63,703 bases of DNA from positions 1 to 63,703 of the IMG/VR virus record IMGVR_UViG_3300046709_000146; one strand, 5' to 3'. The translations under genes and the position numbers were made by a program. Each line of letters starts with the position of its first letter. The first letter of the stretch is position 1. The notes below the pieces were generated by a model, which saw only the letters and a program-made list of their open reading frames with translations, did no database searches and was not told where the DNA came from. Source of the DNA: a virus (Duplodnaviria > Caudoviricetes). Positions 3,715 through 44,798 of this stretch are shown one piece after another.

Positions 3715-4560
3715 TTACGAGGACTTTTGTGCTTGTGCGCTGAGACCTGCCGAGAGCAGGCCGTCGAGGTTGGCGATGGTGTCGACGGTCTGCGGACCGC
3801 CGTTGCCGTTGAGCGGCGAGCGCGGCGAGTTGCTGCCGCCGTCCTGCTTGCCGGCGAAGTAGGGGTTGTCGACGAGGTACTGCTTGGCCGCCTCGGCGAG
3901 CTTGGTGAAGCTCTTGCCGCCGACTGCCACGGACTTGGGCTCGAGGTTGTCGTCGAGCTCGATCTGCGCCTCGCTCAGGAACGTGAGCGTCGCGGCCTTG
4001 CTCGCGCCCTTGGCGATGCCGGCGTCGGACAGCGCGCTCGAGACCAGGTGACGCTGCACGTAGCCCCGGTGCGCGTCGGCGGCCTTGGCGGCGTTCTGCT
4101 CGGCGGCGGCGACCTTCGCGGCCCACTCGGCCTCGAGCTGCTTTTGCTTGTCGGTCGACTTCTGCAGGTTGTGCTGGAGCTTCTCGAGCTCGCTCTTGCC
4201 CTTGAGCTTCTCCTGCTCGAGCTGCTCCTCGCGCGCGGCGTCCGCCTCGGCCAGGCGGGCCTTGATGCTGTCGAGGTCGGCGAGCGCAGCGGCCTGCGCA
4301 TCGAGCTGCACCTTGAGCTTGCCGACACGCTCCTGGACGATCGCGTTGAGCTCCTCTTGCGAGAACGTCTTGCCGCCGCCTGGCGCGGGGTCGCCGTCCG
4401 GCGAGCGCAGCACGCCGGGCAGCGCAAACCAGGGCAGGGCGTTGCAGACGGTCGCGCTACGGGCGACGGGCTCGCGCATGCGCAGCGGGTCGAACGCCTC
4501 GCGCTCGAAGGCGCTGGCGGCGAACGCGTGACTGCGGGCGTGCTTGGTGGGCGTGGTCAT
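3715..4560 (-). CDS. Capsid scaffolding protein
   Basis: KTFSQEELNAIVQERV motif then long coiled coil; immediately upstream of capsid gene. Confidence 0.8.
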   Translation of the reverse strand: MTTPTKHARSHAFAASAFEREAFDPLRMREPVARSATVCNALPWFALPGVLRSPDGDPAPGGGKTFSQEELNAIVQERVGKLKVQLDAQAAALADLDSIKARLAEADAAREEQLEQEKLKGKSELEKLQHNLQKSTDKQKQLEAEWAAKVAAAEQNAAKAADAHRGYVQRHLVSSALSDAGIAKGASKAATLTFLSEAQIELDDNLEPKSVAVGGKSFTKLAEAAKQYLVDNPYFAGKQDGGSNSPRSPLNGNGGPQTVDTIANLDGLLSAGLSAQAQKSS

Positions 4561-4676
4561 GGTGGTCTCTCGTCTCCCCGGCAGCGCCGGTGTTCCCCGA
4601 TTGACAGCACGCGCTGACGCAGCCCAACGGGTCGGAGCTGCAGCGCTGGGGCGGATGCTTTCACAGCACCGCCAAG

Positions 4677-4702
4677 ATCAATCACAATGGCCCCCGGGCA
4701 GG
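4677..4702 (-). promoter_or_regulatory. Candidate late-promoter motif, copy 1
   Basis: atcaatcacaatggcccccgggcagg resembles 47541-47565; both are intergenic and upstream of structural genes. Confidence 0.45.
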
Positions 4703-4891
4703 GGCCGAGCCCGGGCGCCTAGCGGGGCCTGCGCGGCGCCTGGCGGCCTCGGCGCGCCGCGCAGTACGCCCAGGCGTCGACGCAGAGCTCGAGCGCCCAG
4801 AAGAGCGCGCAGGCGGGCCAGTAGCGCGACTCGACGTGCGCCCAGCCGTACGCGATGAGCGCAGCGACCAGCAGGTCGAGCGCGAGCAGCG

Positions 4892-5119
4892 TCACGGCGC
4901 AGCCGGGGAGGGCGCGAGCGACAGCAGCGTGAAGCGCGGGCGCATGAGGCCGTCCGGCCACTGCACCGGCTCGATGAACATCTCGAGCGGGCGCACCCAG
5001 ATCGCGCTCGTCTCGTGCGAGACGTAGACCACGACGCGCTGCTCGCGGTCCTCGCTCAGCCGCGCAAGCCAGAGCAGCGTATACGTGCCGCCCTTGTAGT
5101 GGCGATAGGACTGCATCAT
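4892..5119 (-). CDS. DUF1653-family small protein
   Basis: YRHYKGGTY...VVVY...IWVRPLEMF...PRF. Confidence 0.8.
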   Translation of the reverse strand: MMQSYRHYKGGTYTLLWLARLSEDREQRVVVYVSHETSAIWVRPLEMFIEPVQWPDGLMRPRFTLLSLAPSPAAP

Positions 5120-6096
5120 CGCGGCTCGCCCGTCCGGTGGTAGACGGCGGCGAGCTCGCTGCGCGCCCGCGGCGCCGGGAGCTTTCCGTTGGACGCGCCG
5201 CGCAGGAGCGACAGCGGGCGGCCCTCGACGAACGCGTTGTACGCATGGATGGCGCGCGCCGCCTCGTCGAGACCTGCGACCATGCGGCCGAGTTCCGGCC
5301 CACGCATCCCGGTGATCATGACGCTGCAGAGCGCCTTGACCGCCGTGCACTCCTGGCCGCCGATGACGTGCGAGTTGTCCACGACGTGCGTGAAGAACTC
5401 GAGCGCCGCGTCTCGGTCGACACGCAGACACGCGACCATGCCCGCCATCAGCCCGGCCCTCGGCTGCATGCCCTTGACGCTGCGCCGGTGCAGCGCGGCG
5501 ATGACGTCGCGGAACGGATGCGCGAGCGCGATGTCCACCTTGGCCTGGTTGCCCAGGCGCGCGTACGCGTTCTCGCCGAACCCGACGTGGTCGTAGACGA
5601 GGCCCGCGATGACGCCTGCGTGCAGCGCGGTCTTGCCGGAGCTTTTGATCTTGGCAATCTGCGCCAGCGACCGCGACTTGTTGCCGGAGTCGATCGTGCT
5701 GAACGCGTCGTCGCCGACGATGCACACGGTCCAGTCCAACGTCACGCCCGCCTGCACCTGCGCCGTCAGGCGATGCTGGCCGTCCACCAGGTCGACCTCG
5801 CGCGAGAAGCACAGCGCCGAGCCATTCTCGAGGAAGCGCCCCTCGGTCATGGCCGCCTGCAGACGCGCGACGTGCTTCTTGCTGACGCTGCGCTGGTAGG
5901 CCGGGCGCAGCTCGAGCAGCTGGCGCGCCTGGTCTGGCGTGCAGCCGTGAATCCGGCCGAACGTGCTGTTGGACCATCGCGTCGCGCCGATGGCGCACAG
6001 CACGGCGCCGACCATCTCATCTGTCAGCTCCGTCTTGGTCGTGTGCACAGGCCGCCCCCATTGGTTGATCAGTGTCAGCTGCCGTCGATTCGTCAT
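5116..6096 (-). CDS. ParB/Srx-like DGQHR-motif protein
   Basis: YQRSVSKKHV...LVDGQHRLTA. Confidence 0.7.
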   Translation of the reverse strand: MTNRRQLTLINQWGRPVHTTKTELTDEMVGAVLCAIGATRWSNSTFGRIHGCTPDQARQLLELRPAYQRSVSKKHVARLQAAMTEGRFLENGSALCFSREVDLVDGQHRLTAQVQAGVTLDWTVCIVGDDAFSTIDSGNKSRSLAQIAKIKSSGKTALHAGVIAGLVYDHVGFGENAYARLGNQAKVDIALAHPFRDVIAALHRRSVKGMQPRAGLMAGMVACLRVDRDAALEFFTHVVDNSHVIGGQECTAVKALCSVMITGMRGPELGRMVAGLDEAARAIHAYNAFVEGRPLSLLRGASNGKLPAPRARSELAAVYHRTGEPR

Positions 6097-8288
6097 CCTG
6101 CCCCTGCCTTCCTGCTGCGCGTGAGCAGCGAGCTAACGCGCTTGATCTGACCGGTCGGCTCGAGCACCTGCTGGCCCTTCTCGAGCAGCGCGTGCCGCGT
6201 CGGACCGAGGATGGCGCGCGCCTTGTCCGGGTTCGCAGCGAGCCAGCCGGCCGCGTCAGGCGAGTCGTGGTCCTGCATCTCCTCGGGCACCTGGCCCTCC
6301 TCGTCTGCAGGCCGGTCGAAGAACTTGCGGTCGATGACGGCGTGCACCGTGCACAAGCAGTTATGTGCTACAACGCCATCGACGACGTACGACTCATCGA
6401 CGTCGACAGCGAAGTTGTGCACCGGGCCGTCGTAGGCGACGCGCTCGAGCGCCGTCACAGTGGAGAGAGAGAAGTGCCCAGCAGCAGCCCTCACGTTGAC
6501 GCTCTCGCGCAAGAGGTCGTCAAGCTCTACGTCGCCAAGCAGCTGAGCGTTCTGGAAATCGCGACTCGCACCGGACTGCATCGGGCGACTGTCGACCGCG
6601 TTCTGCAACGCGCCCAGATCGTCAAGCGTACTGCCTCCGAGCAGCAGATCGTGGCCAGCGCGCGTCGCTCGCCTGCGAAGCGCAAGGCCATGGTTGTCGC
6701 TGCGCACGTCGCTCGACGCGGGTCGCAAGACTCCTTCGCGTCGCTGTTCGCACGAGCTCACACCAAAGAGCATCGCGCTGTCCCGACCGCTCACGAGGCG
6801 CGCGTGCTCGCTGCACTCACCGACGACGGGTACCTGCCTGTCGCGCAGCTGGCTGTCGGCAAGTACAACGTCGACGCTGGGCTTCCCGAGCTGATGCTCG
6901 CTGTCGAGGTCGACCCTGGCGACTGGCATCGCGGCGGGCGCAAGCGCATCGCTGACCTTGCCAAAGAGCGCTACCTCGCTGCGGTCGGCTGGCGCGTGCT
7001 GCGCGTCGACCCGAGTAAAGACCCGGTCACCTGGCTGAAGCTGCTCCGCAGTCTGCCAGCCCCGAGCCGTAAGCACAGGATGCTCTGGCGTCGCTATCAG
7101 ACGCTTGTCGCCAATGGTCGCTACGACGAGCTGGCCGCGCCATGGGCGCGCGCTGAGGCGCAGCACGCGACGTAGCGCGCCCGAGTGCGTGCGCACGAGC
7201 ATGCCCGGCACGATGCGCTCGATGGGTACGTCGCCGTCGCTGGTCTCGACCAGACAGCCAGGCGGGCAGCAGTTCGGGTGCGGCATCGCGGGCACTGCGC
7301 CTGCTGGGTAGCGACCGGGGCCGAGCTCGTACGCATTCTGGTTGGCGAGGATGTCGCAGACGTCCATGCGCGAGCCGCCGTGCAGCGAGCTCGCGTGGCG
7401 GTTGCTGAGCGTCCACTGGAAGCAGACCACGCCCGGCTTGTCGGCCGTCTGCTTGACGTACGACTGGCGCATCGCCTCGACCGTCTCGGAGCGCGCGATG
7501 CGGTTGGCCTGGAAGGCGAGCTTGTCTTTGACGTAGCGCCCGACCACGTCGTCGAGCTGCTTGTCGCTGGCGGTCTGCACCTCGCGCACGAACTTCTTGG
7601 TCGCGCTCTTGAGGCTGTACTTGCTCGGCAGGAACGTGTTGTCGGTCTGCACCTCGCCGAGCTTGGCGATGCGCCCGGCGTAGCTCTTGGCCAGCTGGCG
7701 CAGCTCGCCCGCGTCGCCTGCGCGCGCGGCGGCCTCGAGCTCCTGGAGGTACTTGGGCAGCTCGACGGCGCGCGGGTCGATGCGCTCGATCTTGCGCGCG
7801 GCGCCGAGGATGCCTCGCTGCTGCTGGACGCCTCGCTGCACCTCGGCGGCCATCTGCTGCGAGACCTCGCGGTCGACGCGGCGCATGCGCTTGGTCAGCC
7901 CGACCTTGTCGACGGTGATGCGTCCGGCGATGCGGTCTGCGGCCTCGCTCATCGCGCTCGCGGTCGCGCGCACCTGCGCGTCGAGCACCTCGTCGCCGAG
8001 CACGGCGCGGAACGTCTGCTCTGCTGCGGCGGGGCCGGCGTCGGCGCCAGCGCGGATGGACTGCCGCACGATGCGCACGCGCTTGGGGAAGGTCTTCGCG
8101 AACTCCGCATCGAACAGCTGCTCGAGCTCGGCGGTCGAGCGGCGCACCTTGGTGGCCTCGCGCAGCTTGGCGAGCACGTCGCTGGCGAGCTGCGCGTGCG
8201 CCTGGGCGAGGTCGAGCTCGCCGCGACGGATCTTGCCGAGCAGCTTGCGCAGCTCCGCGCGGTAGAGCGTGAGCGCCTTGTCAGCCAC
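6093..8288 (-). CDS. Minor head morphogenesis protein (SPP1 gp7/Mu gpF-like) containing an intein
   Basis: RIARSET...DVCD...HPN/CLC C-terminal motif; follows portal region. Confidence 0.85.
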   Translation of the reverse strand: MADKALTLYRAELRKLLGKIRRGELDLAQAHAQLASDVLAKLREATKVRRSTAELEQLFDAEFAKTFPKRVRIVRQSIRAGADAGPAAAEQTFRAVLGDEVLDAQVRATASAMSEAADRIAGRITVDKVGLTKRMRRVDREVSQQMAAEVQRGVQQQRGILGAARKIERIDPRAVELPKYLQELEAAARAGDAGELRQLAKSYAGRIAKLGEVQTDNTFLPSKYSLKSATKKFVREVQTASDKQLDDVVGRYVKDKLAFQANRIARSETVEAMRQSYVKQTADKPGVVCFQWTLSNRHASSLHGGSRMDVCDILANQNAYELGPGRYPAGAVPAMPHPNCCPPGCLVETSDGDVPIERIVPGMLVRTHSGALRRVLRLSARPWRGQLVVATIGDKRLIATPEHPVLTARGWQTAEQLQPGDRVFTRVDAQHAPADRSEVALFGKVSDALAPAAMPVARVDLDSEHQLGKPSVDVVLADSQLRDRQVPVVGECSEHARLVSGRDSAMLFGVSSCEQRREGVLRPASSDVRSDNHGLALRRRATRAGHDLLLGGSTLDDLGALQNAVDSRPMQSGASRDFQNAQLLGDVELDDLLRESVNVRAAAGHFSLSTVTALERVAYDGPVHNFAVDVDESYVVDGVVAHNCLCTVHAVIDRKFFDRPADEEGQVPEEMQDHDSPDAAGWLAANPDKARAILGPTRHALLEKGQQVLEPTGQIKRVSSLLTRSRKAGAG
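6360..7271 (-). mobile_element. Intein (304 aa) inserted at HPN|CLC
   Basis: Block A CCPPGCLV, block B ATPEHPVLT, block F VHNFAV, terminal VAHN followed by Cys+1. Confidence 0.92.
6474..7175 (+). CDS. HTH + Vsr/DUF559-like endonuclease encoded antisense inside the intein
   Basis: GGAG RBS at 6462 and GTG at 6474; HTH LSVLEIATRTGLHRATVDRVL; PTAHE...YNVD...AVEVDPGDWH...D..KERYL...GWRVLRV. Confidence 0.85.
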   Translation: MPSSSPHVDALAQEVVKLYVAKQLSVLEIATRTGLHRATVDRVLQRAQIVKRTASEQQIVASARRSPAKRKAMVVAAHVARRGSQDSFASLFARAHTKEHRAVPTAHEARVLAALTDDGYLPVAQLAVGKYNVDAGLPELMLAVEVDPGDWHRGGRKRIADLAKERYLAAVGWRVLRVDPSKDPVTWLKLLRSLPAPSRKHRMLWRRYQTLVANGRYDELAAPWARAEAQHAT

Positions 8289-38059: not shown

Positions 38060-38343
38060 CTGTAGAAGCTCGCTTTGCTCTCGGGCGCCTCGTGCAGACG
38101 CCCGGCGCGCAGGCCGCTGCCGCGCCGGCGCACGTGCTCGCGTGCGTGCACCGGCACGTGACCGGCGACTGGGGCGTCATCGACGCGCACGACGCGCAGG
38201 TCAACGAGGCCGCCCTGCGCGACGGCGGCAGCATCCTGAGCGCGTACCCCATCGACGTGCGCGACCCCGGCAAGGGCATGCTCTGGGTCATCACCGATGC
38301 GGACCGGTCGGCGACGACCGTGCTGCTCCCGGAGGAGTACTGA
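38056..38343 (+). CDS. Conserved plasmid/phage protein (GDWG...LLPEEY family)
   Basis: FALGRLVQTPG...RHVTGDWG...WVITDADRSATTVLLPEEY. Confidence 0.75.
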   Translation: MTVEARFALGRLVQTPGAQAAAAPAHVLACVHRHVTGDWGVIDAHDAQVNEAALRDGGSILSAYPIDVRDPGKGMLWVITDADRSATTVLLPEEY

Positions 38344-38678
38344 TGCGCCTGCACATCGAGTTCACAGACGACGAGCTGCGCGACATCCTGACCACCGCGC
38401 AGGAGAGCGGCTCGGGCTACTGGTGCATCAGCGACGACGACCTGGCTGACGCGCTCACCGGGCCGGGCGTGCGCATCCGCGACCGCGAGAACCCGGACGA
38501 GGTGCTCGGCCTGCTCACGCGCGAGCTGCTCGCGCAGGCAGGCGGCAAGCTGCACACGCAGATCCGCGCTGACCTGGTTGCGCAGTTCCTCGACCGCGAC
38601 GGCCCGAACGGCGTCGACGCAGACGCGGCCGACGCGTTCCTGCAGGTCGCGCTGTTCGGCGAGGTCAGGTTCGGCTGA
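38343..38678 (+). CDS. Hypothetical protein
   Basis: GSGYWC...DADAADAFLQVALFGEV. Confidence 0.6.
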   Translation: MRLHIEFTDDELRDILTTAQESGSGYWCISDDDLADALTGPGVRIRDRENPDEVLGLLTRELLAQAGGKLHTQIRADLVAQFLDRDGPNGVDADAADAFLQVALFGEVRFG

Positions 38679-38693
38679 GCGTCCCACCTACGT

Positions 38694-38737
38694 CGAGCGC
38701 GCCCCGCTGAGCCAAGCTGCCCAGCGGGGCGCGCTCG
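38694..38737. terminator. 16-bp perfect-stem hairpin between convergent units
   Basis: cgagcgcgccccgctg...cagcggggcgcgctcg; no U-tract. Confidence 0.55.
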
Positions 38738-38828
38738 CGCCTAGTGCCAGCGCGCGGCGCCCCGAGCTGCCGGACGTAGGCGCGCACGTCCCGGCAGAGG
38801 GCGCCCCGTACGCTGGCGCGAGGGCGCC

Positions 38829-39569
38829 CTAGCGGTCAGGCGCAGGTGCCTTGACGGCGACCCAGCCGGCGAAGTTGCACCAGCGCCAAAAGCAGTCGAC
38901 CTGCGAGAAGCCTGCGCGCTTGAGCATGGACTCATTCCACTCGGCCGTGATGGGCACGAGCACGCCCTCGAGCGCGAGACGCTTGCGCGCTATCTCCTCG
39001 GAGCTGTACCCGTGCGCGGCCTTGAGGCGCAGGTACTCGCGCACCATCGTGTCGTCGATGCCGCTCGACGCGCCGAGCACCTTCTCGACGAGCAGGAACG
39101 CGCCGCCTGGGAGCAGCGCGTCGTAGACCCGCTGCACGACCTGCTGGCGGTACTCGATGGGGATGAACTGCAGCGTCAGCACGCTGAGCACAAGGCTCGG
39201 CACGACGTTCGGGAAGTCGCGACGTAGGTCGGTCGGGAGCAGCAGAAGACGGGGCGCCTCGAGCCCCGAGAAGCGCGCGCGCGCCGCCTCGAGCATGGGC
39301 TCAGACACCTCGACGCCGACGAAGCTACGCGCCTCGGGTGCGCGCTCGACGAAGGGCGCGAGCGCCTCGCCGCGACTGCAGCCGAGGTCGACGACGTCCG
39401 AGCTCGGGCGCACGTACGTGAGGCCGAGCTCGGTGACCAGGCGCCGCATCTCGAGGTAGTCAGGAATCGAGCGCGCGAGCATGTCGTCAAAGCACTCCGT
39501 GACCGACGCGTCGAACGCCCAGCGCGCGCCCTCGTCGGGCAGGTGACCGAGGCTGCTATTGGGCTGCAT
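38829..39569 (-). CDS. cmoA: Carboxy-S-adenosylmethionine synthase (CmoA-like)
   Basis: WAFD..V..CFDDMLARSIPDY, DLGCSRG, LTLQFI, LLVEK, EIARKRLALEGV, AGF...NF. Confidence 0.88.
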   Translation of the reverse strand: MQPNSSLGHLPDEGARWAFDASVTECFDDMLARSIPDYLEMRRLVTELGLTYVRPSSDVVDLGCSRGEALAPFVERAPEARSFVGVEVSEPMLEAARARFSGLEAPRLLLLPTDLRRDFPNVVPSLVLSVLTLQFIPIEYRQQVVQRVYDALLPGGAFLLVEKVLGASSGIDDTMVREYLRLKAAHGYSSEEIARKRLALEGVLVPITAEWNESMLKRAGFSQVDCFWRWCNFAGWVAVKAPAPDR

Positions 39570-40806
39570 GCTCTGCTCCTTTGTGACGCAGCAGCACGCC
39601 GTCGCGAATGGCTGCTGCGATGTGGCTCATCATGACGGGAGGAACCGCGCGCCCGCAGCGCTCCCATTGCTGGCCGTAGTCTCCCGTCAGCACGAAGTCG
39701 TCGGGGAAGCTGCAGATACGGCGCAGTTCTGCGACTGAGAGTTTTCTGCACTGGGTCGGGTGCGAGATCGAAGCTTTGCTCGGGTCTCCTCCGAGCGCCG
39801 TCACCGTCTGCGCTGGCTTGTCAGGATGCGAGCGGACTAGCTGGAAATACTTCCCCGACTGTTCGCCCTCGGCGAGCTTCTCCCACTCTTTGCCAGTCGC
39901 GAACCTTGTCATCCATGAAGCGTCCTCAACGGGCCGTTGAACAAGTCCCGGCAGCGCATCGCGCAGTGTGTAGCGGTACGGCAACGGTTTCGGGAAGGTA
40001 GGGTCAAGTCCCAGGTCACTACGCACCCCGACGAAGATGAGCCGCTGCCGTGTCTGCGGAACACCGAGCCACTGCGCGTCGAGCAGCTGCGCCTGCACGC
40101 GATAGCCGCAACTCTTGAGCTCGGCGAGGATGAGCTTGAAGTAGCCCTTGGCGGTGCCCTTGATGAGGCCCGAGACGTTCTCGGCGACGAACGTCTTGGG
40201 CTGCACGCCGCGCACGAGCCTCGCGTACTCGAAGAACAGGTCGTCGGTGCGTTGCGCCTTGTCGCTGTACTTCTTGACCTGGCCCCAGCCGCCCTCGCGC
40301 TTGCCCACCGTCGAGAAGCTCGCGCACGGCGGGCTGCCGTCGAGTAGGTCGAGTTCGCCCGGCTGTAGCTTCATCGTGGCGAGAAAGTCCTCGGCCGTGA
40401 CCTGCCGGATGTCGCGCCCGTCGACGAACGTGTACGGCGCGGCGTTGGCCTTGTAGCTGTCGCGCGCCGCGTCGATGAACTCGTTTGCGTACAGAACGCG
40501 AAAGCCCGCCATGCGGTAGCCCGTGCTCGAGCCGCCGCAGCCCGAGAACGTGCTCGCGCAGGTCAGCCCGTTCCAGGGCAGCGCGCGCACCTCGTCCATC
40601 GTCGGCACGCGGTACGGTGGTTTGCGAGTGTCAGGCGCAGGCATTTCGGGGGGCTCCTCGGAAAGTCTGTAGTGGACTTGGAAGTGGTACCGATTGAGCC
40701 CACCTACGCCGACTGTGATCGCTGGACATGGCTTGTTCGTCACGTCGCCTGCGCCCCAGGCGCCGCTCGTGTCATGCACGACGCGCAGGAGAACCTCGTA
40801 CGTCAT
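39556..40806 (-). CDS. C5-cytosine DNA methyltransferase-fold enzyme, predicted carboxymethyltransferase
   Basis: FSGCGG (I), GSPPC (IV), ENV (VI), QTRQR (VIII); motif X reads GRAVPP rather than GNAVPP. Confidence 0.88.
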   Translation of the reverse strand: MTYEVLLRVVHDTSGAWGAGDVTNKPCPAITVGVGGLNRYHFQVHYRLSEEPPEMPAPDTRKPPYRVPTMDEVRALPWNGLTCASTFSGCGGSSTGYRMAGFRVLYANEFIDAARDSYKANAAPYTFVDGRDIRQVTAEDFLATMKLQPGELDLLDGSPPCASFSTVGKREGGWGQVKKYSDKAQRTDDLFFEYARLVRGVQPKTFVAENVSGLIKGTAKGYFKLILAELKSCGYRVQAQLLDAQWLGVPQTRQRLIFVGVRSDLGLDPTFPKPLPYRYTLRDALPGLVQRPVEDASWMTRFATGKEWEKLAEGEQSGKYFQLVRSHPDKPAQTVTALGGDPSKASISHPTQCRKLSVAELRRICSFPDDFVLTGDYGQQWERCGRAVPPVMMSHIAAAIRDGVLLRHKGAEHAAQ

Positions 40807-42176
40807 GCGGTGACCGTCCCTCCGAACGCTCGGCGAGCGGTCGCGTTGTAAAAGCGTATCGGCTCGGCAATGACGCGCGCGCACGCGTCGGCCATCCCGC
40901 TCGAGCCCTGGAAGGTGTCCTTGGTCCGCGCGATGACCCACGGCGGCACGACGCCGTGCGCGGCGCGCTTGAGCGCGGACTTGTGCCCCTGCGGCGGACA
41001 CTCTGCAGTCGACATCGACAGCACGCGCTCGACGAGCTCGCGCTCCATGAAGGGCAGCCGGCACTCGACGCCCGCCGCCATGAAGGCTTTGTTGCAGCGC
41101 ACGAAGTTGCCGCGCGCCATCTTGTCGAGCTGCTCGAGGCGTATCTGCCGCCAGTCCGCATCGGACTTTGCTGCGGCCAGGCGCATCGACCCGTAGCCCC
41201 CGAACAGCTCGTCCGACGCTTCGCCGCTCAGGCACACCTTGAAGCCGTCCGCTGCGATGCGGCGCGCAAGCGGCAGGCACAGCGCCGCGATCTCCGTCTG
41301 CGCCTTGCTCGGAATCTCGATGGCGAGCACGGCCGCTTCGAGGTCGGCCGAGGTCGGCGCCGACACCGGCACCTCGGTCAGCGGCACGCCGAGCTCGCTG
41401 CAGAGCTTGCGCGCTGCGTAGAGGTCGCCCGCGCGCTCGCTGAGCTTGGCGGTGTACGCGACGACGTCGGGGCGCACGCGCTGCGCCAGCGCCAGGATGA
41501 GGCTCGAGTCGAGCCCGCCCGAGATGAGCACGCACAGCGGGGCGTCGGCGACCAGACGCCGCGCTACGCCCTGCGAGAGCAGCGCGAGGACGTCGCCTAC
41601 GGGCCGCTGCTCGGCGGCTGGGTCGTAGTAGCGCCTGAGCTGTCCGGTGGTCAGGTCGAGGCACGTCGCGGGCGGCAGCGGCCTTGCGCCTGCGCCCCGC
41701 CCCGGCCCCCAGGCTTTGCGCTCACTCGCCCAGGCGTAGCCCGCGCCCTGGCGCAGCACGTAGAGCGGTATCTTGCCGTAGCGGTCGCGCGCCAAGAGGC
41801 GCACCGCGCCGTGCGACCACGCAAGCGCGAACATGCCCTCGAAGCGGGGCAGCGCTGCCTCGCCCCAGGTCGCGAGCGCAGCGGCGACGACCTCCGTGTC
41901 GCCTGTCGTGCGGAAGCTGCAGCCCAGCTGCTCGAGCTCACTGCGCAGCTGGGCGAAGTTCCAGAGCTCGCCGTTGTAGCTGAGCACGCCGCCCCCGTAG
42001 CGGAAGGGCTGGTCGCTCGCCGACGACAGGTCCAGCACGCTCAGGCGCACGTGCCCGTGCACGACGCCGTCATGCTCGCAGAGCCCGCGTGCGTCCGGCC
42101 CGCGATGCGCGATGCGCTCGAGCGCGCGCTCGACGTCGAAGCTCTGCAGCTGAAACTGACCGGCGACGCCGCACAT
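40803..42176 (-). CDS. Asparagine-synthetase-B-like glutamine amidotransferase
   Basis: MCG N-terminal Cys, HRGPD, YNGE, DTEV, ARDRYG, SGGLDSS, SGEASDELFGGY. Confidence 0.9.
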   Translation of the reverse strand: MCGVAGQFQLQSFDVERALERIAHRGPDARGLCEHDGVVHGHVRLSVLDLSSASDQPFRYGGGVLSYNGELWNFAQLRSELEQLGCSFRTTGDTEVVAAALATWGEAALPRFEGMFALAWSHGAVRLLARDRYGKIPLYVLRQGAGYAWASERKAWGPGRGAGARPLPPATCLDLTTGQLRRYYDPAAEQRPVGDVLALLSQGVARRLVADAPLCVLISGGLDSSLILALAQRVRPDVVAYTAKLSERAGDLYAARKLCSELGVPLTEVPVSAPTSADLEAAVLAIEIPSKAQTEIAALCLPLARRIAADGFKVCLSGEASDELFGGYGSMRLAAAKSDADWRQIRLEQLDKMARGNFVRCNKAFMAAGVECRLPFMERELVERVLSMSTAECPPQGHKSALKRAAHGVVPPWVIARTKDTFQGSSGMADACARVIAEPIRFYNATARRAFGGTVTA

Positions 42177-42178
42177 AC

Positions 42179-42733
42179 CTATCCCTTCGAGCTCTCGCTC
42201 CACTCGTAGCCGCACTTGGGGCACGTGCAGTTGGTCGCGAGGTTCTCGTCGTACTCGGGGAACTCCTCGGGCGGCGCGGGCGCCTCGAGCTTCTTGACCA
42301 GCTTGTCGAACTCGCCCTGGTCAAAGCCCGTCAGTAGTGCGTCGTACCCCTCGCTCGCAAGCCCCTGCAGCTCGACCGCGAGCAGCTCCTCGTCCCAGCC
42401 AGCATTGAGCGCGAGCTTGTTGTCGGCGATGACGTAGGCCCGCTTTTGCACCTCGCTCAGTCCACGCAGCTCAATGCACGGCACCTCCGCGAGCCCAAGC
42501 TGACGCGCCGCCAGCACGCGCCCATGCCCCGCGATGATGCCGCCGAGCTCGTCCGTCAGCACCGGGTTGGTGAACGAGAACTCCCTGATGCTCGCCGCGA
42601 TTTGCGCGATTTGCGCGTCGCTATGGGTCCGCGAATTTCTCGCGTACGGGATCAAGTCTGCTAGCGGTCTGTACACGACTGCGAGCTGCTCAGGTCCTGC
42701 TTGCTTGCGTGCTGCTGCCTCTGCCTTGCCCAT
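42179..42733 (-). CDS. ParB/Srx N-terminal-domain protein heading the modification cluster
   Basis: LIPYARNSRTH...IIAGHGR...IADNKL; C-terminal CPKCG. Confidence 0.85.
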   Translation of the reverse strand: MGKAEAAARKQAGPEQLAVVYRPLADLIPYARNSRTHSDAQIAQIAASIREFSFTNPVLTDELGGIIAGHGRVLAARQLGLAEVPCIELRGLSEVQKRAYVIADNKLALNAGWDEELLAVELQGLASEGYDALLTGFDQGEFDKLVKKLEAPAPPEEFPEYDENLATNCTCPKCGYEWSESSKG

Positions 42734-42748
42734 GCCCCATCGCCCCTT

Positions 42749-43009
42749 TCAGCCGCCCTCGATCCAGTCTGCAATCGCCACGTGCAGCGCGCCGATGAGC
42801 TCGTACACGCTCGTGCGCACGCCGCGCTGCATGCGGTAGCTCCTCGCGCACCGCACGCCGTGCTTGTCCCGCTCGAGCGCGACAACGACGACGCTGTCGC
42901 TCGCCGCCAGCGCCTCGGTGATGAACGCGTGCAGGTCGGCGCGCTCGCTCTCGCCCCAGGCCGGGAGCGGCTCGCCGTCGCTGTACAGGACGCGCAGGTT
43001 CTTGCGCAT
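42749..43009 (-). CDS. Hypothetical protein
   Basis: 86 aa from MRKNLRV. Confidence 0.5.
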   Translation of the reverse strand: MRKNLRVLYSDGEPLPAWGESERADLHAFITEALAASDSVVVVALERDKHGVRCARSYRMQRGVRTSVYELIGALHVAIADWIEGG

Positions 43010-44319
43010 CACTCGATGTGGTCGATGACGCGGTCGGTCCGAGCGCGCTGCCGGCGTCGCACGCGGTAGTGCTGCACGACCTGCCAGACGAGCAGCGCGA
43101 TGAGCAAGAGCGCGATGAGGAGCAGCAGGTAGTGCGTCGTGCTGAACGCCTGCTGCGTCGGCCCAAAGATGCTCGCCGGCTGCGCGTAGGCGGTCCACTC
43201 GGCCACCATGACCTTGCCGAAGTCGGTGAGGTTGTCCGGCTCGATCGACGCGGAGCTCGTGTCGAATACGTGGCAGAAGCTGGTGTTGCTGCACTTGGCG
43301 TTGGCCTGGTCGTTGTCCTCCCAGCTCCAGCTGAGCCAGCCGATGCCGTGCTTCTCGCTCACGTCGATGATGCGCTCGGGCGTGACGTTCGTCGGCGACG
43401 GCCCGATGCCGCGGCCGGGTCCGAACTCTCCGACGACAACAGTCAGGCCCGTGTCGCGTAGGCGGTCCATCGTGGGCACGAGGTCGAGCTGCCCGTTCCA
43501 CTGCGGCGGGACGCCGCCCTGCGAGTCGCAGACCATGCCGTAGATATGCCAGTCGAACAGCACGTTGCGCTCAGGGTCTGCATTGAACACCGCGCGTCCG
43601 TGGTCGACGATCGCCTGCGCGTTTTGGCCGCAGCCCGGCGCGTCGACCATGATGGCGCCGTGCCAGCCTGCATTGCGGATACGCGGAATGGCGGACACGT
43701 ACGCGTCGCGCCACTTGCCAGGGTCGTCGCCCCATTCGTTGGCGATGTTCAGAATCATGTAGCGCTCGAAGGCTTGGTACTTGCGCGCGTCGCGCACCCA
43801 GCGCGAGACCATCGTCTCGAACGTGCCGGGGTCGCTCTTGCAGGTCCCGTCCCAGAAGCCCGGCACCTGCACTGCGCGGCCGAACTCGGTCGTGCCGCCG
43901 ATGTTCGGACTCTGCATGTCCGCGATGGTGCGCTCCGGGTCGTCTGCAAAGTAGACGAGCCAGCGCGTCGTGTTGCTCGCGGTGTGCCCCAAGCCGGGGC
44001 CCCAGTTGTCCTGATGTGTCTTGTTGGTTCCGCGCATTCTGTGCTCGTGCCCGTTGGCGTCGAACAGATGCGAGCCGACCACGTAAAAGCCTTCGCCGCG
44101 AGAGGTCGGCGGGCGCGCGCCTCCGATGGGCGGCGGCCCTGCGTCGACGATGGGCGGCACGCCGCTGTCGACGACGGGCGGCACGCCTGCGTCAGGCGCA
44201 GCAGGCACGCCGCCGTCCGTGACGACGCAGGTCAGGGTCACGGTCTCCTGCGCCTGCGCATGCGCGAGCGTGGCGGTGAGCAGCACCAGCAATGCAGCGA
44301 GTAGAGGTTTCATTCGCAT
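43009..44319 (-). CDS. Secreted, C-terminally anchored GH5 glycoside hydrolase (beta-mannanase-like)
   Basis: Signal peptide; RGTN, NIANEW (acid/base), MVDAPG.GQ, HIY, VGEFG (nucleophile), GWLSWSW; C-terminal TM helix plus basic tail. Confidence 0.88.
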   Translation of the reverse strand: MRMKPLLAALLVLLTATLAHAQAQETVTLTCVVTDGGVPAAPDAGVPPVVDSGVPPIVDAGPPPIGGARPPTSRGEGFYVVGSHLFDANGHEHRMRGTNKTHQDNWGPGLGHTASNTTRWLVYFADDPERTIADMQSPNIGGTTEFGRAVQVPGFWDGTCKSDPGTFETMVSRWVRDARKYQAFERYMILNIANEWGDDPGKWRDAYVSAIPRIRNAGWHGAIMVDAPGCGQNAQAIVDHGRAVFNADPERNVLFDWHIYGMVCDSQGGVPPQWNGQLDLVPTMDRLRDTGLTVVVGEFGPGRGIGPSPTNVTPERIIDVSEKHGIGWLSWSWEDNDQANAKCSNTSFCHVFDTSSASIEPDNLTDFGKVMVAEWTAYAQPASIFGPTQQAFSTTHYLLLLIALLLIALLVWQVVQHYRVRRRQRARTDRVIDHIE

Positions 44320-44798
44320 GGGCCTTTCGAGCGCGAGTAACGATGCGGCCTCGGGCGATCGAGCAGGTTGCCGAGGGCCTTGAGGCAGTGCCTTTGCTCG
44401 TGCTCAGGCAAGCGCCGCACAGCGTCGCGCAGCGCCTCGGCGAACGGACGGCGCGGCGCGCGCTGCGCGAGCGCGCGCTCGACAGCGGGCGCGCACTGCG
44501 GGTTGACCTCGAGCTCGTCGAAGATGGGCATCGTCTGCCCGGCAGGCCCGATGCGGTCGGTCACGTACGGCACGAGGTCGATGGGCAAGGTCAGCGCCCA
44601 GGCCGGCACGTAGCTCCAGACGAGCCCGCCCTCGCCGCCGAGCACCCAGCAGTCCCACTGGTCATCGACGCGCAGGTTGTCGTCGACGACCAAGTTGCTG
44701 CCCTCGTAGATGAGCCCGTCCTCGTCGAGGTACGGGTAGCGCTCCTTGAACGCGTCGACGGTGGTCTGCTCTTCTGGCGTCAGGACGATGCGTTCCAC
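44310..44798 (-). CDS. Hypothetical protein
   Basis: 162 aa. Confidence 0.5.
   Translation of the reverse strand: MERIVLTPEEQTTVDAFKERYPYLDEDGLIYEGSNLVVDDNLRVDDQWDCWVLGGEGGLVWSYVPAWALTLPIDLVPYVTDRIGPAGQTMPIFDELEVNPQCAPAVERALAQRAPRRPFAEALRDAVRRLPEHEQRHCLKALGNLLDRPRPHRYSRSKGPCE

Follow-up and report, generated by a model that had tools for sequence, protein, structure and literature searches.

A phage gene cassette of the CmoA-CmoX-ligase kind with a glutamine-hydrolysing ligase, predicted to lead to 5-carbamoylmethylcytosine

Introduction

Among the closest described relatives of the locus analysed here are the CmoA-CmoX-CmoY systems of bacteriophages, which were presented in December 2025 by Yang et al. 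(Nat Commun 2025;17:281, PMC12783734) and shown in Synechococcus phage S-B43. In S-B43, CmoA yields carboxy-S-adenosylmethionine (carboxy-SAM), CmoX generates 5-carboxymethylcytosine (5cxmC) at GC sites, and the ligase SpCmoY acts on 5cxmC in DNA, ligating glycine with ATP (PMC12783734). Arg350 of the S-B43 enzyme SpCmoX contacts the carboxymethyl group of the donor; the R350N variant is inactive and only carboxy-SAM is accepted (PMC12783734). In the engineered variant M.MpeI N374K, a basic residue at the position of the motif-X Asn lets a cytosine-C5 methyltransferase use carboxy-SAM at CG sites (PMC12783734). Here, we report the computational analysis of a four-gene cassette of this kind in IMG/VR record IMGVR_UViG_3300046709_000146, which encodes a ParB-like protein, a ligase resembling asparagine synthetase AsnB, a cytosine-C5 methyltransferase homologue and a CmoA-like protein. 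The window, i.e. the whole stretch of DNA analysed, spans this complete virus record; it has 63,703 bases, direct terminal repeats and a G+C content of 68.8%.

CmoA-CmoX systems are a year-old addition to the known phage DNA modifications, and their glycine branch alone is proven. In their survey of IMG/VR v4, UniProtKB and MGnify, Yang et al. collected 5,615 CmoX candidates, in the neighbourhood of which 4,257 CmoA proteins, 2,251 ligases and 1,660 ParBc proteins were encoded (PMC12783734). The second largest ligase cluster, which includes A0A7T0Q3R0, carries a glutamine-hydrolysing domain, and the authors predicted usage of glutamine-derived ammonia; they left the role of the ParBc protein open (PMC12783734). 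Experimental precedent for a ParB-type partner of a DNA-modifying enzyme comes from a subclass of phage thymine dioxygenases, which require a ParB-fold protein on double-stranded DNA (PNAS 2026, PMC13229309).

The initial annotation of this DNA had considered that the pathway might be new. This did not hold, as the system, including its glutamine-amidotransferase branch and the association with ParB, is already published (PMC12783734). Our literature search, which did not extend to subscription journals, returned neither a paper naming or demonstrating carbamoylmethylcytosine in DNA nor a second CmoX/CmoY paper. The present work adds small advances: the identification of A0A7T0Q3R0 as a protein of Streptomyces phage TurkishDelight, a co-occurrence analysis centred on the ligase and provided with a negative control, a calibration of CmoA scores, and a predicted docking of the ParB-like protein on CmoX.

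Results and discussion

Placement of the cassette among CmoA-CmoX-ligase systems

We read the cassette as a putative pathway for post-replicative hypermodification of cytosine, of the CmoA-CmoX-ligase kind and ending in 5-carbamoylmethylcytosine, and we give this reading a probability of roughly 0.6. The identity of the end product is what we infer. The window can be connected to the published survey through phage TurkishDelight, whose gp124 was found by exact look-up to be UniRef100_A0A7T0Q3R0. In a tblastn search, gp124 was the only full-length match of the window ligase in the phage collection (39.7% identity, 99% coverage, E 1e-69), and this link exceeds the threshold at which the ligase cluster was delimited in the network of Yang et al. 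(E 1e-56, about 30% identity; PMC12783734). As judged from sequence, the window belongs to the branch with glutamine-hydrolysing ligases, which these authors described bioinformatically.

Genes gp122-gp125 of TurkishDelight are of the same four types as the genes of the window. The CmoX proteins of both phages are 57.8% identical, share the GRAVPPVMMSHIAAA motif and both read GRAVPP at motif X, and the C-terminal CP-x-C-x-Y-x-WS tail of the ParB-like protein is common to both. A second ParB-like gene of TurkishDelight lacks this tail, and only gp122, which adjoins CmoX, matches the profile through the tail. The gene order in TurkishDelight is ParB-CmoX-ligase-CmoA, whereas the ligase precedes CmoX in the window.

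With S-B43 the window shares adjacent location of cmoA, a C5-methyltransferase homologue possessing the SPPC motif and an Arg of the Arg350 type, and an ATP-dependent amide ligase of the asparagine synthetase superfamily. In contrast, SpCmoY is a single-domain protein of 271 residues that lacks a glutaminase and uses glycine, while the window ligase is a two-domain protein of the AsnB type comprising 457 residues. Moreover, S-B43 has no ParB-like gene and the gene orders differ.

The methyltransferase homologue as a CmoX

The methyltransferase homologue matches PF00145 (E 6e-52). Its closest solved structure is that of SpCmoX (PDB 8YF3, E 1.1e-66), followed by M.HaeIII (8.4e-25), and pairwise comparison with SpCmoX revealed 41% identity (E 5e-83). 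A putative catalytic Cys161 in motif IV and Arg386 in motif X align with the corresponding residues of SpCmoX (Table 1), and the motif-X Arg is present in 40/40 clade members, counting the window protein. By these features, the window protein is a CmoX. While M.MpeI N374K is an engineered Lys variant, the window enzyme belongs to the SpCmoX lineage and carries Arg naturally. In an AlphaFold2 model computed from an alignment of 13 rows, the core of the protein is predicted confidently (predicted template-modelling score 0.76).

Public gene calls disagree on the start of CmoX, which is Met70 (347 residues) according to JGI/IMG and Met1 (416 residues) according to Logan; in the latter case, the start is an ATG overlapping the stop codon of the ligase gene. 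We favour the long form because relatives also have N-terminal modules. The N-terminal extension of the window protein contains such a module, which resembles modules within the target-recognition region of relatives. Within the clade, this extra module reads D-x-P-x-P-(T/A)-(I/V)-x-(A/V)-G and continues into an aromatic-x-V strand; it was seen in the window and, among the loci of relatives collected here, in L001-L008, L018, L037 and L042. It resembles the canonical segment immediately preceding motif IX, and its copies in relatives are found before motif I, within the target-recognition region, or at both places. The window CmoX has a single, N-terminal copy and none internally; this copy ends in V and thus falls outside the pattern PxPT(I/V)xA. 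In TurkishDelight, a near-identical copy (HDTSG...PAITVG...YHF) is located within the recognition region instead.

The CmoA-like protein

Solved relatives matching the CmoA-like protein over the full length are YecO of H. influenzae (1IM8, 3e-32) and CmoA of E. coli (4GEK, 3.1e-31). The protein is 28% identical to the proven phage enzyme SpCmoA (E 6e-30). Its score of 154.5 bits with TIGR00740 (E 3.7e-45) is below the cut-off of 193.3, as is that of SpCmoA, which reaches only 115.6 bits and thus scores even lower than the window protein. Since a proven enzyme fails so clearly, the cut-off is uninformative for phage copies.

E. coli CmoA binds the carboxylate of carboxy-SAM through a salt bridge with Arg199 (PMC3663124). 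The segment KRLALEGV of the window protein aligns with KRSMLENV of E. coli CmoA, and Arg197 is the equivalent of Arg199, as determined by counting residues on the alignment under the assumption of a 14-residue tag in chain 4GEK. The equivalent of Glu164 is likewise kept. Full-length alignment and these two residues are what the window protein shares with E. coli CmoA (4GEK/4IWN; PMC3663124). It differs in lacking a CmoB partner, in being phage-encoded beside a DNA enzyme, and in falling below the equivalog cut-off.

The AsnB-like ligase

The ligase comprises Asn_synthase and GATase_6/7 domains. Besides the N-terminal Cys2, the glutaminase domain contains the equivalents of R49, N74, G75, E76 and D98, which are kept across the clade. 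The synthetase domain features the SGGLDS motif and the equivalents of S346, E348, D351, E352, R387 and K449 of E. coli AsnB. Both the two-domain organization and this set of residues, including the catalytic N-terminal Cys, are shared with E. coli AsnB (1CT9) and human asparagine synthetase (ASNS), and the mechanism expected to be common to these enzymes is attack on an acyl-adenylate by ammonia tunnelled from glutamine. Conservation of the complete glutaminase set, with Cys at position 2 in 36/36 relatives having this terminus on the contig, speaks for glutamine hydrolysis and use of the released ammonia, which would result in a primary amide.

The ligase also departs from E. coli AsnB in several respects. 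It has 457 rather than 553 residues, with a range of 451-470 in its clade. The alignment with 1CT9 stops near AsnB residue 471, so that a C-terminal end of about 90 residues is missing, and Lys376 is not kept. The position of Asp384 is occupied by Asn (Asn357 in the window) in 37/37 clade rows having a residue there and in 6/6 close genome loci. When 74 distant AsnB proteins were aligned to the clade profile, they matched only up to about residue 330, and the columns needed for the Asp384 comparison were gaps in 68/74. A further difference is that the clade is found in phage DNA-modification cassettes, for which we propose a DNA-borne carboxymethyl group, rather than aspartate, as acceptor.

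At the level of genes and residues, the initial annotation proved accurate. It had described four adjacent, co-oriented genes with gaps or overlaps of at most 14 nt, and the junctions measure 2, 4 and 14 nt, with all genes on the minus strand. Its motif X reading, GRAVPP with an Arg codon at 39649-39651, agrees with Arg386 encoded by CGC at these positions. The carboxylate-binding Arg it had recognised in a KR..LE.V segment of CmoA is Arg197, and the AsnB-like enzyme it considered intact, from a Cys2 N-terminal nucleophile (Ntn) glutaminase and SGGLDS, indeed has the full residue set.

Recurrence of the cassette in other genomes

To assess co-occurrence, loci were chosen through the ligase alone, which yielded 36 IMG/VR loci encoding ligase relatives of 45-64% identity. 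Partner genes were then sought by profile searches of the open reading frames (ORFs) in all six frames. The profiles were built from the same loci, which aids detection and introduces no bias, since the loci had been chosen by their ligase. CmoX was detected in 33/36 loci, the three misses being loci whose contig starts at the ligase. CmoA was found in 35/36, and in the remaining case the contig ends 129 nt after the ligase. ParB-like genes were present in 31/36, with all five misses at contig ends. The cassette genes are co-oriented in these loci. As a control, 74 genome loci with ordinary AsnB homologues (at most 39% identity) were searched in the same manner, and here neither CmoX (0/74) nor ParB (0/74) was detected; with the CmoA profile, two weak matches to generic methyltransferases were obtained (23 and 42 bits), as compared to at least 150 bits for real CmoA proteins. 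Recurrence in loci selected by the ligase, together with absence from 74 ordinary AsnB loci, indicates that the cassette is more than a chance assembly. Among the close genome matches of the ligase, 5/6 have CmoX, the sixth being locus L044 discussed below.

In 29 of 30 complete IMG/VR loci the gene order is ParB-CmoX-ligase-CmoA, and the remaining locus has ParB-CmoA-CmoX-ligase. The order ParB-ligase-CmoX-CmoA of the window was encountered elsewhere only in L042, a locus on the Verrucosispora sp. TAA-831 chromosome (NZ_CP192240.1), which presumably is a prophage. Some loci show peculiarities. In L033, an IMG/VR contig, the ligase gene (about 3888-6372) and cmoA (about 7016-7856) are each split into two overlapping ORFs, reflecting frameshifts or sequencing errors. 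In L002 (6657-7403, minus strand) and L037 (6361-7467, minus strand), a gene on the opposite strand lies between ligase and cmoA; the encoded proteins of 248 and 368 residues have a common C-terminal ...EEEICK.IGWKAC.VTLKRAA... segment.

The ParB-like protein and its predicted docking on CmoX

As a single sequence, the ParB-like protein scores 21.1 bits with PF02195 (ParB_N), which is below the gathering score of 26.3. A profile of 13 sequences of this family, when compared with the N-domain of Spo0J/ParB/Noc proteins, matched Spo0J (1VZ0) with E 3.7e-10 and also ParB and Noc chains. GHGR of the window protein aligns with GERR of Spo0J, one Arg being kept. The most conserved part of the family is the C-terminal tail, which ends in CPKCGYEWS in the window. 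Invariant residues are P155, F158, C171, P172, C174, G175, W178 and S179.

Complex prediction for CmoX and the ParB-like protein gave an interaction prediction score from aligned errors (ipSAE) of 0.77 (0.79, 0.77 and 0.76 in the individual runs), while the best control remained at 0.01. The predicted local distance difference test score (pLDDT) of the partner did not fall below 73, and the runs shared at least 78% of the contacts. In the calibration, which is only roughly valid for alignments such as those used here, this mark was reached by 58/80 solved complexes and by 2/110 mismatched pairs. The predicted interface is formed by residues 151-180 of the ParB-like protein and residues 215-228, 238-246, 256 and 271-278 of CmoX, and the invariant residues fall within it. 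The model supports binding of the ParB-like protein to CmoX through its C-terminal tail.

A related arrangement is the pair 5mYOX176/ParB176 (PMC13229309), in which a small ParB-fold protein with no obvious DNA-binding domain is likewise encoded beside an enzyme that modifies bases post-replicatively. The partner in that case is an Fe/2-oxoglutarate dioxygenase rather than a methyltransferase homologue, and no stable complex could be trapped in that system. In the window, the ParB-CmoX link rests on gene neighbourhood and one complex prediction.

A proposed pathway

Taken together, the data suggest the following sequence of steps. Judged by its homology with proven enzymes, CmoA would convert host S-adenosylmethionine (SAM) and prephenate to carboxy-SAM. 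CmoX, in which the defining residues are present, would flip out the cytosine; Cys161 would attack C6 and the carboxymethyl group would be transferred to C5, yielding 5cxmC, while Arg386 would hold the carboxylate of carboxy-SAM. In the least certain step, the AsnB-like enzyme would adenylate the carboxylate of 5cxmC at its PP-loop site. Ammonia released from glutamine at Cys2 would pass between the domains and produce a neutral primary amide, 5-carbamoylmethylcytosine. The ParB-like protein is modelled as a partner of CmoX, docked by the conserved C-terminal tail, and may aid CmoX on double-stranded DNA by analogy with the ParB-dependent thymine dioxygenases. Shielding of the phage DNA from host nucleases is the likely purpose.

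The complete phage genome contains no thymidylate-synthase-like gene (PF00303), no chorismate mutase and no second C5-methyltransferase. Accordingly, modification is most likely post-replicative and draws on host prephenate. A thymidylate-synthase-type pathway at the level of nucleotides was rejected for lack of any PF00303 match in the complete genome, and supply of prephenate by the phage was rejected as the genome has no chorismate mutase.

The initial annotation had proposed this route from carboxy-SAM to the amide, and we retain it as the best reading. Its sequence-level predictions, i.e. a CmoX with Arg at the position of R350, the Arg of CmoA, and a glutaminase joined to a PP-loop domain, all held. 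Co-occurrence of the three genes in other genomes, which it had suggested to survey, was observed for CmoX in 33/36 and for CmoA in 35/36 loci. A fuller version, in which the DNA of this phage carries 5-carbamoylmethylcytosine made with a ParB-fold subunit or activator docked on CmoX by a PxxF...CPxCGYxWS tail, is tentative, and we would rate it somewhat below even odds.

Points against the proposal and alternative explanations

Several observations weigh against the proposed pathway. The ligase passes TIGR01536, albeit narrowly (271.6 bits, cut-off 267.1), and hence still resembles a working asparagine synthetase; by sequence alone it is indistinguishable from a true one. It is not an orthologue of SpCmoY, to which it has 26% identity over 149 residues around the PP-loop only (E 0.003), and its action on DNA is therefore deduced from context and from the SpCmoY precedent. 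Yang et al. could not obtain a soluble enzyme of the A0A7T0Q3R0 cluster (PMC12783734); because the enzymes tested were insoluble, the product of this branch is still inferred. Residues 1-59 of CmoX are unresolved in the AlphaFold2 model (pLDDT 25-44), and the docking of the ParB-like protein expresses model confidence obtained from shallow alignments of 13 rows. Finally, locus L044 on a Chloroflexi metagenome-assembled contig (JAADYZ010000449.1, 4673-6061) encodes a full-length ligase relative of 40% identity, whose 5-kb flanks contain none of the three partner genes (CmoX, CmoA, ParB-like). The L044 ligase belongs either to a system with other partners or to the edge of the family.

The alternative that survives best leaves the pathway up to 5cxmC untouched and has the ligase attach another nucleophile, such as an amino acid, a polyamine or hydroxylamine, so that a substituted amide or a hydroxamate would result. 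Glycine is the nucleophile of SpCmoY, the only proven ligase, and Yang et al. anticipate that other amines are used as well (PMC12783734). The second-best solved relative of the window ligase is annotated as a 'hydroxyamidotransferase' (7YLZ, E 8.9e-33), which shows that delivery of other nitrogen groups is within the reach of AsnB-family enzymes that have an N-terminal Cys. The clade-wide exchange of Asp384 for Asn further suggests that the pocket for acceptor or nucleophile is not identical to that of AsnB. On the other hand, retention of the complete glutaminase set across the clade is difficult to account for without hydrolysis of glutamine, and the cassette contains no gene for the synthesis of another amine. 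We consider this explanation unlikely.

Less probable still is an inverted order of steps. Carboxy-SAM, or a free nucleotide, would be amidated first by the AsnB-like enzyme, which would not act on DNA at any point, and a carbamoylmethyl group would be transferred by CmoX afterwards. No DNA-binding addition is recognisable in the ligase, which is close to AsnB enzymes working on small molecules and shares no more than the PP-loop with SpCmoY, an enzyme that acts on DNA. However, the Arg that binds the carboxylate is kept in all 40 clade CmoX proteins, the ligase of the proven system acts on 5cxmC in DNA (PMC12783734), and the phage encodes no thymidylate-synthase-type enzyme modifying pyrimidines at the nucleotide level.

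Even lower ranks a role of the AsnB-like gene as an auxiliary metabolic gene that provides the infected cell with asparagine, the DNA modification ending at 5cxmC. The TIGR01536 score speaks for it. In a model of human ASNS, Asp367 and Glu364 bind beta-aspartyl-AMP at its alpha-amino and alpha-carboxylate groups (PMC6748925). The window ligase keeps the equivalents of these aspartate contacts, Asp351 and Glu348 in AsnB numbering, the two pairs being equated via an offset of 16 residues; this also weighs against the proposed pathway. Nevertheless, translational coupling ties the gene into the cassette between the ParB-like gene and cmoX, and CmoX lies beside 33/36 of its close relatives (with three misses at contig ends) but beside 0/74 ordinary AsnB genes. 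In addition, the AsnB C-terminal end is missing throughout the clade, whose members carry Asn in place of Asp384. We regard asparagine synthesis as improbable.

Least of all do we expect an ordinary 5-methylcytosine methylase accompanied by an unrelated class I methyltransferase, as the CmoA-like protein, although it reaches the curated cut-off of neither CmoA model and is recognised by Pfam through generic methyltransferase domains only, keeps the carboxylate-binding Arg and outscores the proven SpCmoA on TIGR00740, while the methyltransferase homologue is far nearer to SpCmoX, which takes only carboxy-SAM and is dead as R350N (PMC12783734), than to any methylase.

Significance

Yang et al. 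ranked the glutamine-amidotransferase branch as the second largest ligase cluster (PMC12783734), and the window supplies a complete, compact phage genome of this branch with intact genes. The predicted docking of the ParB-like protein on CmoX offers a testable reason why these enzymes may need a partner. If confirmed, the amide would represent a new natural DNA base and a glutamine-driven way of neutralising a carboxylate handle on DNA, with relevance to phage-host conflict and to enzymatic labelling of DNA. Likewise, a ParB-fold subunit or activator of CmoX, if real, would set apart a 'ParB-dependent' subclass of these enzymes, with a counterpart in the ParB-dependent thymine dioxygenases. 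Should the window CmoX have the GC specificity of SpCmoX, about 45% of the cytosines would be modified in this genome (9,865 GpC sites at 68.8% G+C).

Genome context and features of the cassette

The window encodes a terminase, a major head protein, a tail sheath protein, baseplate proteins and a tape measure protein, and this set of head, sheath, baseplate and tape measure genes identifies a myovirus-like phage. No DNA near-identical to the window was found in the phage collection searched. In the leftward run, the structural genes are followed by a GH5-like gene and then, at the end of the run, by the four-gene cassette, the last genes of the late structural operon in the complete 63.7-kb phage. 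The ParB-like and ligase genes are separated by 2 nt, ligase and cmoX overlap by 4 nt (ATGA), and cmoX and cmoA by 14 nt. Coordinates are compiled in Table 1.

Table 1. Coordinates of the cassette genes, of the residues discussed and of the downstream hairpin.
Feature	Position	Strand	Remarks
ParB-like gene	42179..42733	-	184 aa
ParB-like C-terminal tail, residues 151-180, predicted to dock on CmoX	42194..42283	-	complex prediction
AsnB-like ligase gene	40803..42176	-	457 aa; N-terminus Met-Cys-Gly
Cys2 codon, putative Ntn glutaminase nucleophile	42171..42173	-	Cys in 36/36 relatives with the N-terminus on the contig
SGGLDS PP-loop, ATP pyrophosphatase motif, residues 219-224	41505..41522	-	
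Asn357 codon, counterpart of Asp384 in E. coli AsnB	41106..41108	-	alignment
C5-methyltransferase homologue (CmoX-type) gene	39556..40806	-	416 aa
CmoX N-terminal extension, residues 1-59	40630..40806	-	extra 'KPCPAITVG' module
Cys161 codon, putative catalytic residue, motif IV GSPPC	40324..40326	-	GSPPCASFS; aligned to SPPC/Cys98 of 8YF3
Arg386 codon, motif X GRAVPP	39649..39651	-	CGC; aligned to SpCmoX Arg350 and M.HhaI Asn304 (HMMER alignment)
CmoA-like gene	38829..39569	-	246 aa
CmoA Arg197 codon	38979..38981	-	equivalent of E. coli CmoA Arg199 by alignment count
Hairpin	38694..38737	.	19-nt arms, 95% complementary, 6-nt loop; GC-rich, no T-run

The hairpin downstream of cmoA resides in a convergent intergenic region of 150 nt, between cmoA and a gene ending at 38678, and likely marks the end of the leftward transcription unit. 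Given the high-GC host, it may act as a bidirectional terminator. A consensus scan of 38300-44500, uninformative for a high-GC host, returned no promoter-like site and, within the cassette, no terminator-like site either; the one terminator-like site in this range, fewer than in shuffled sequences, is on the plus strand within the GH5 gene. The latter gene (43009-44319, minus strand) is located directly upstream of the cassette and encodes a GH5 (cellulase-family) protein (PF00150, E 2.2e-16) with an apparent signal-like segment at the N-terminus and a hydrophobic segment at the C-terminus.

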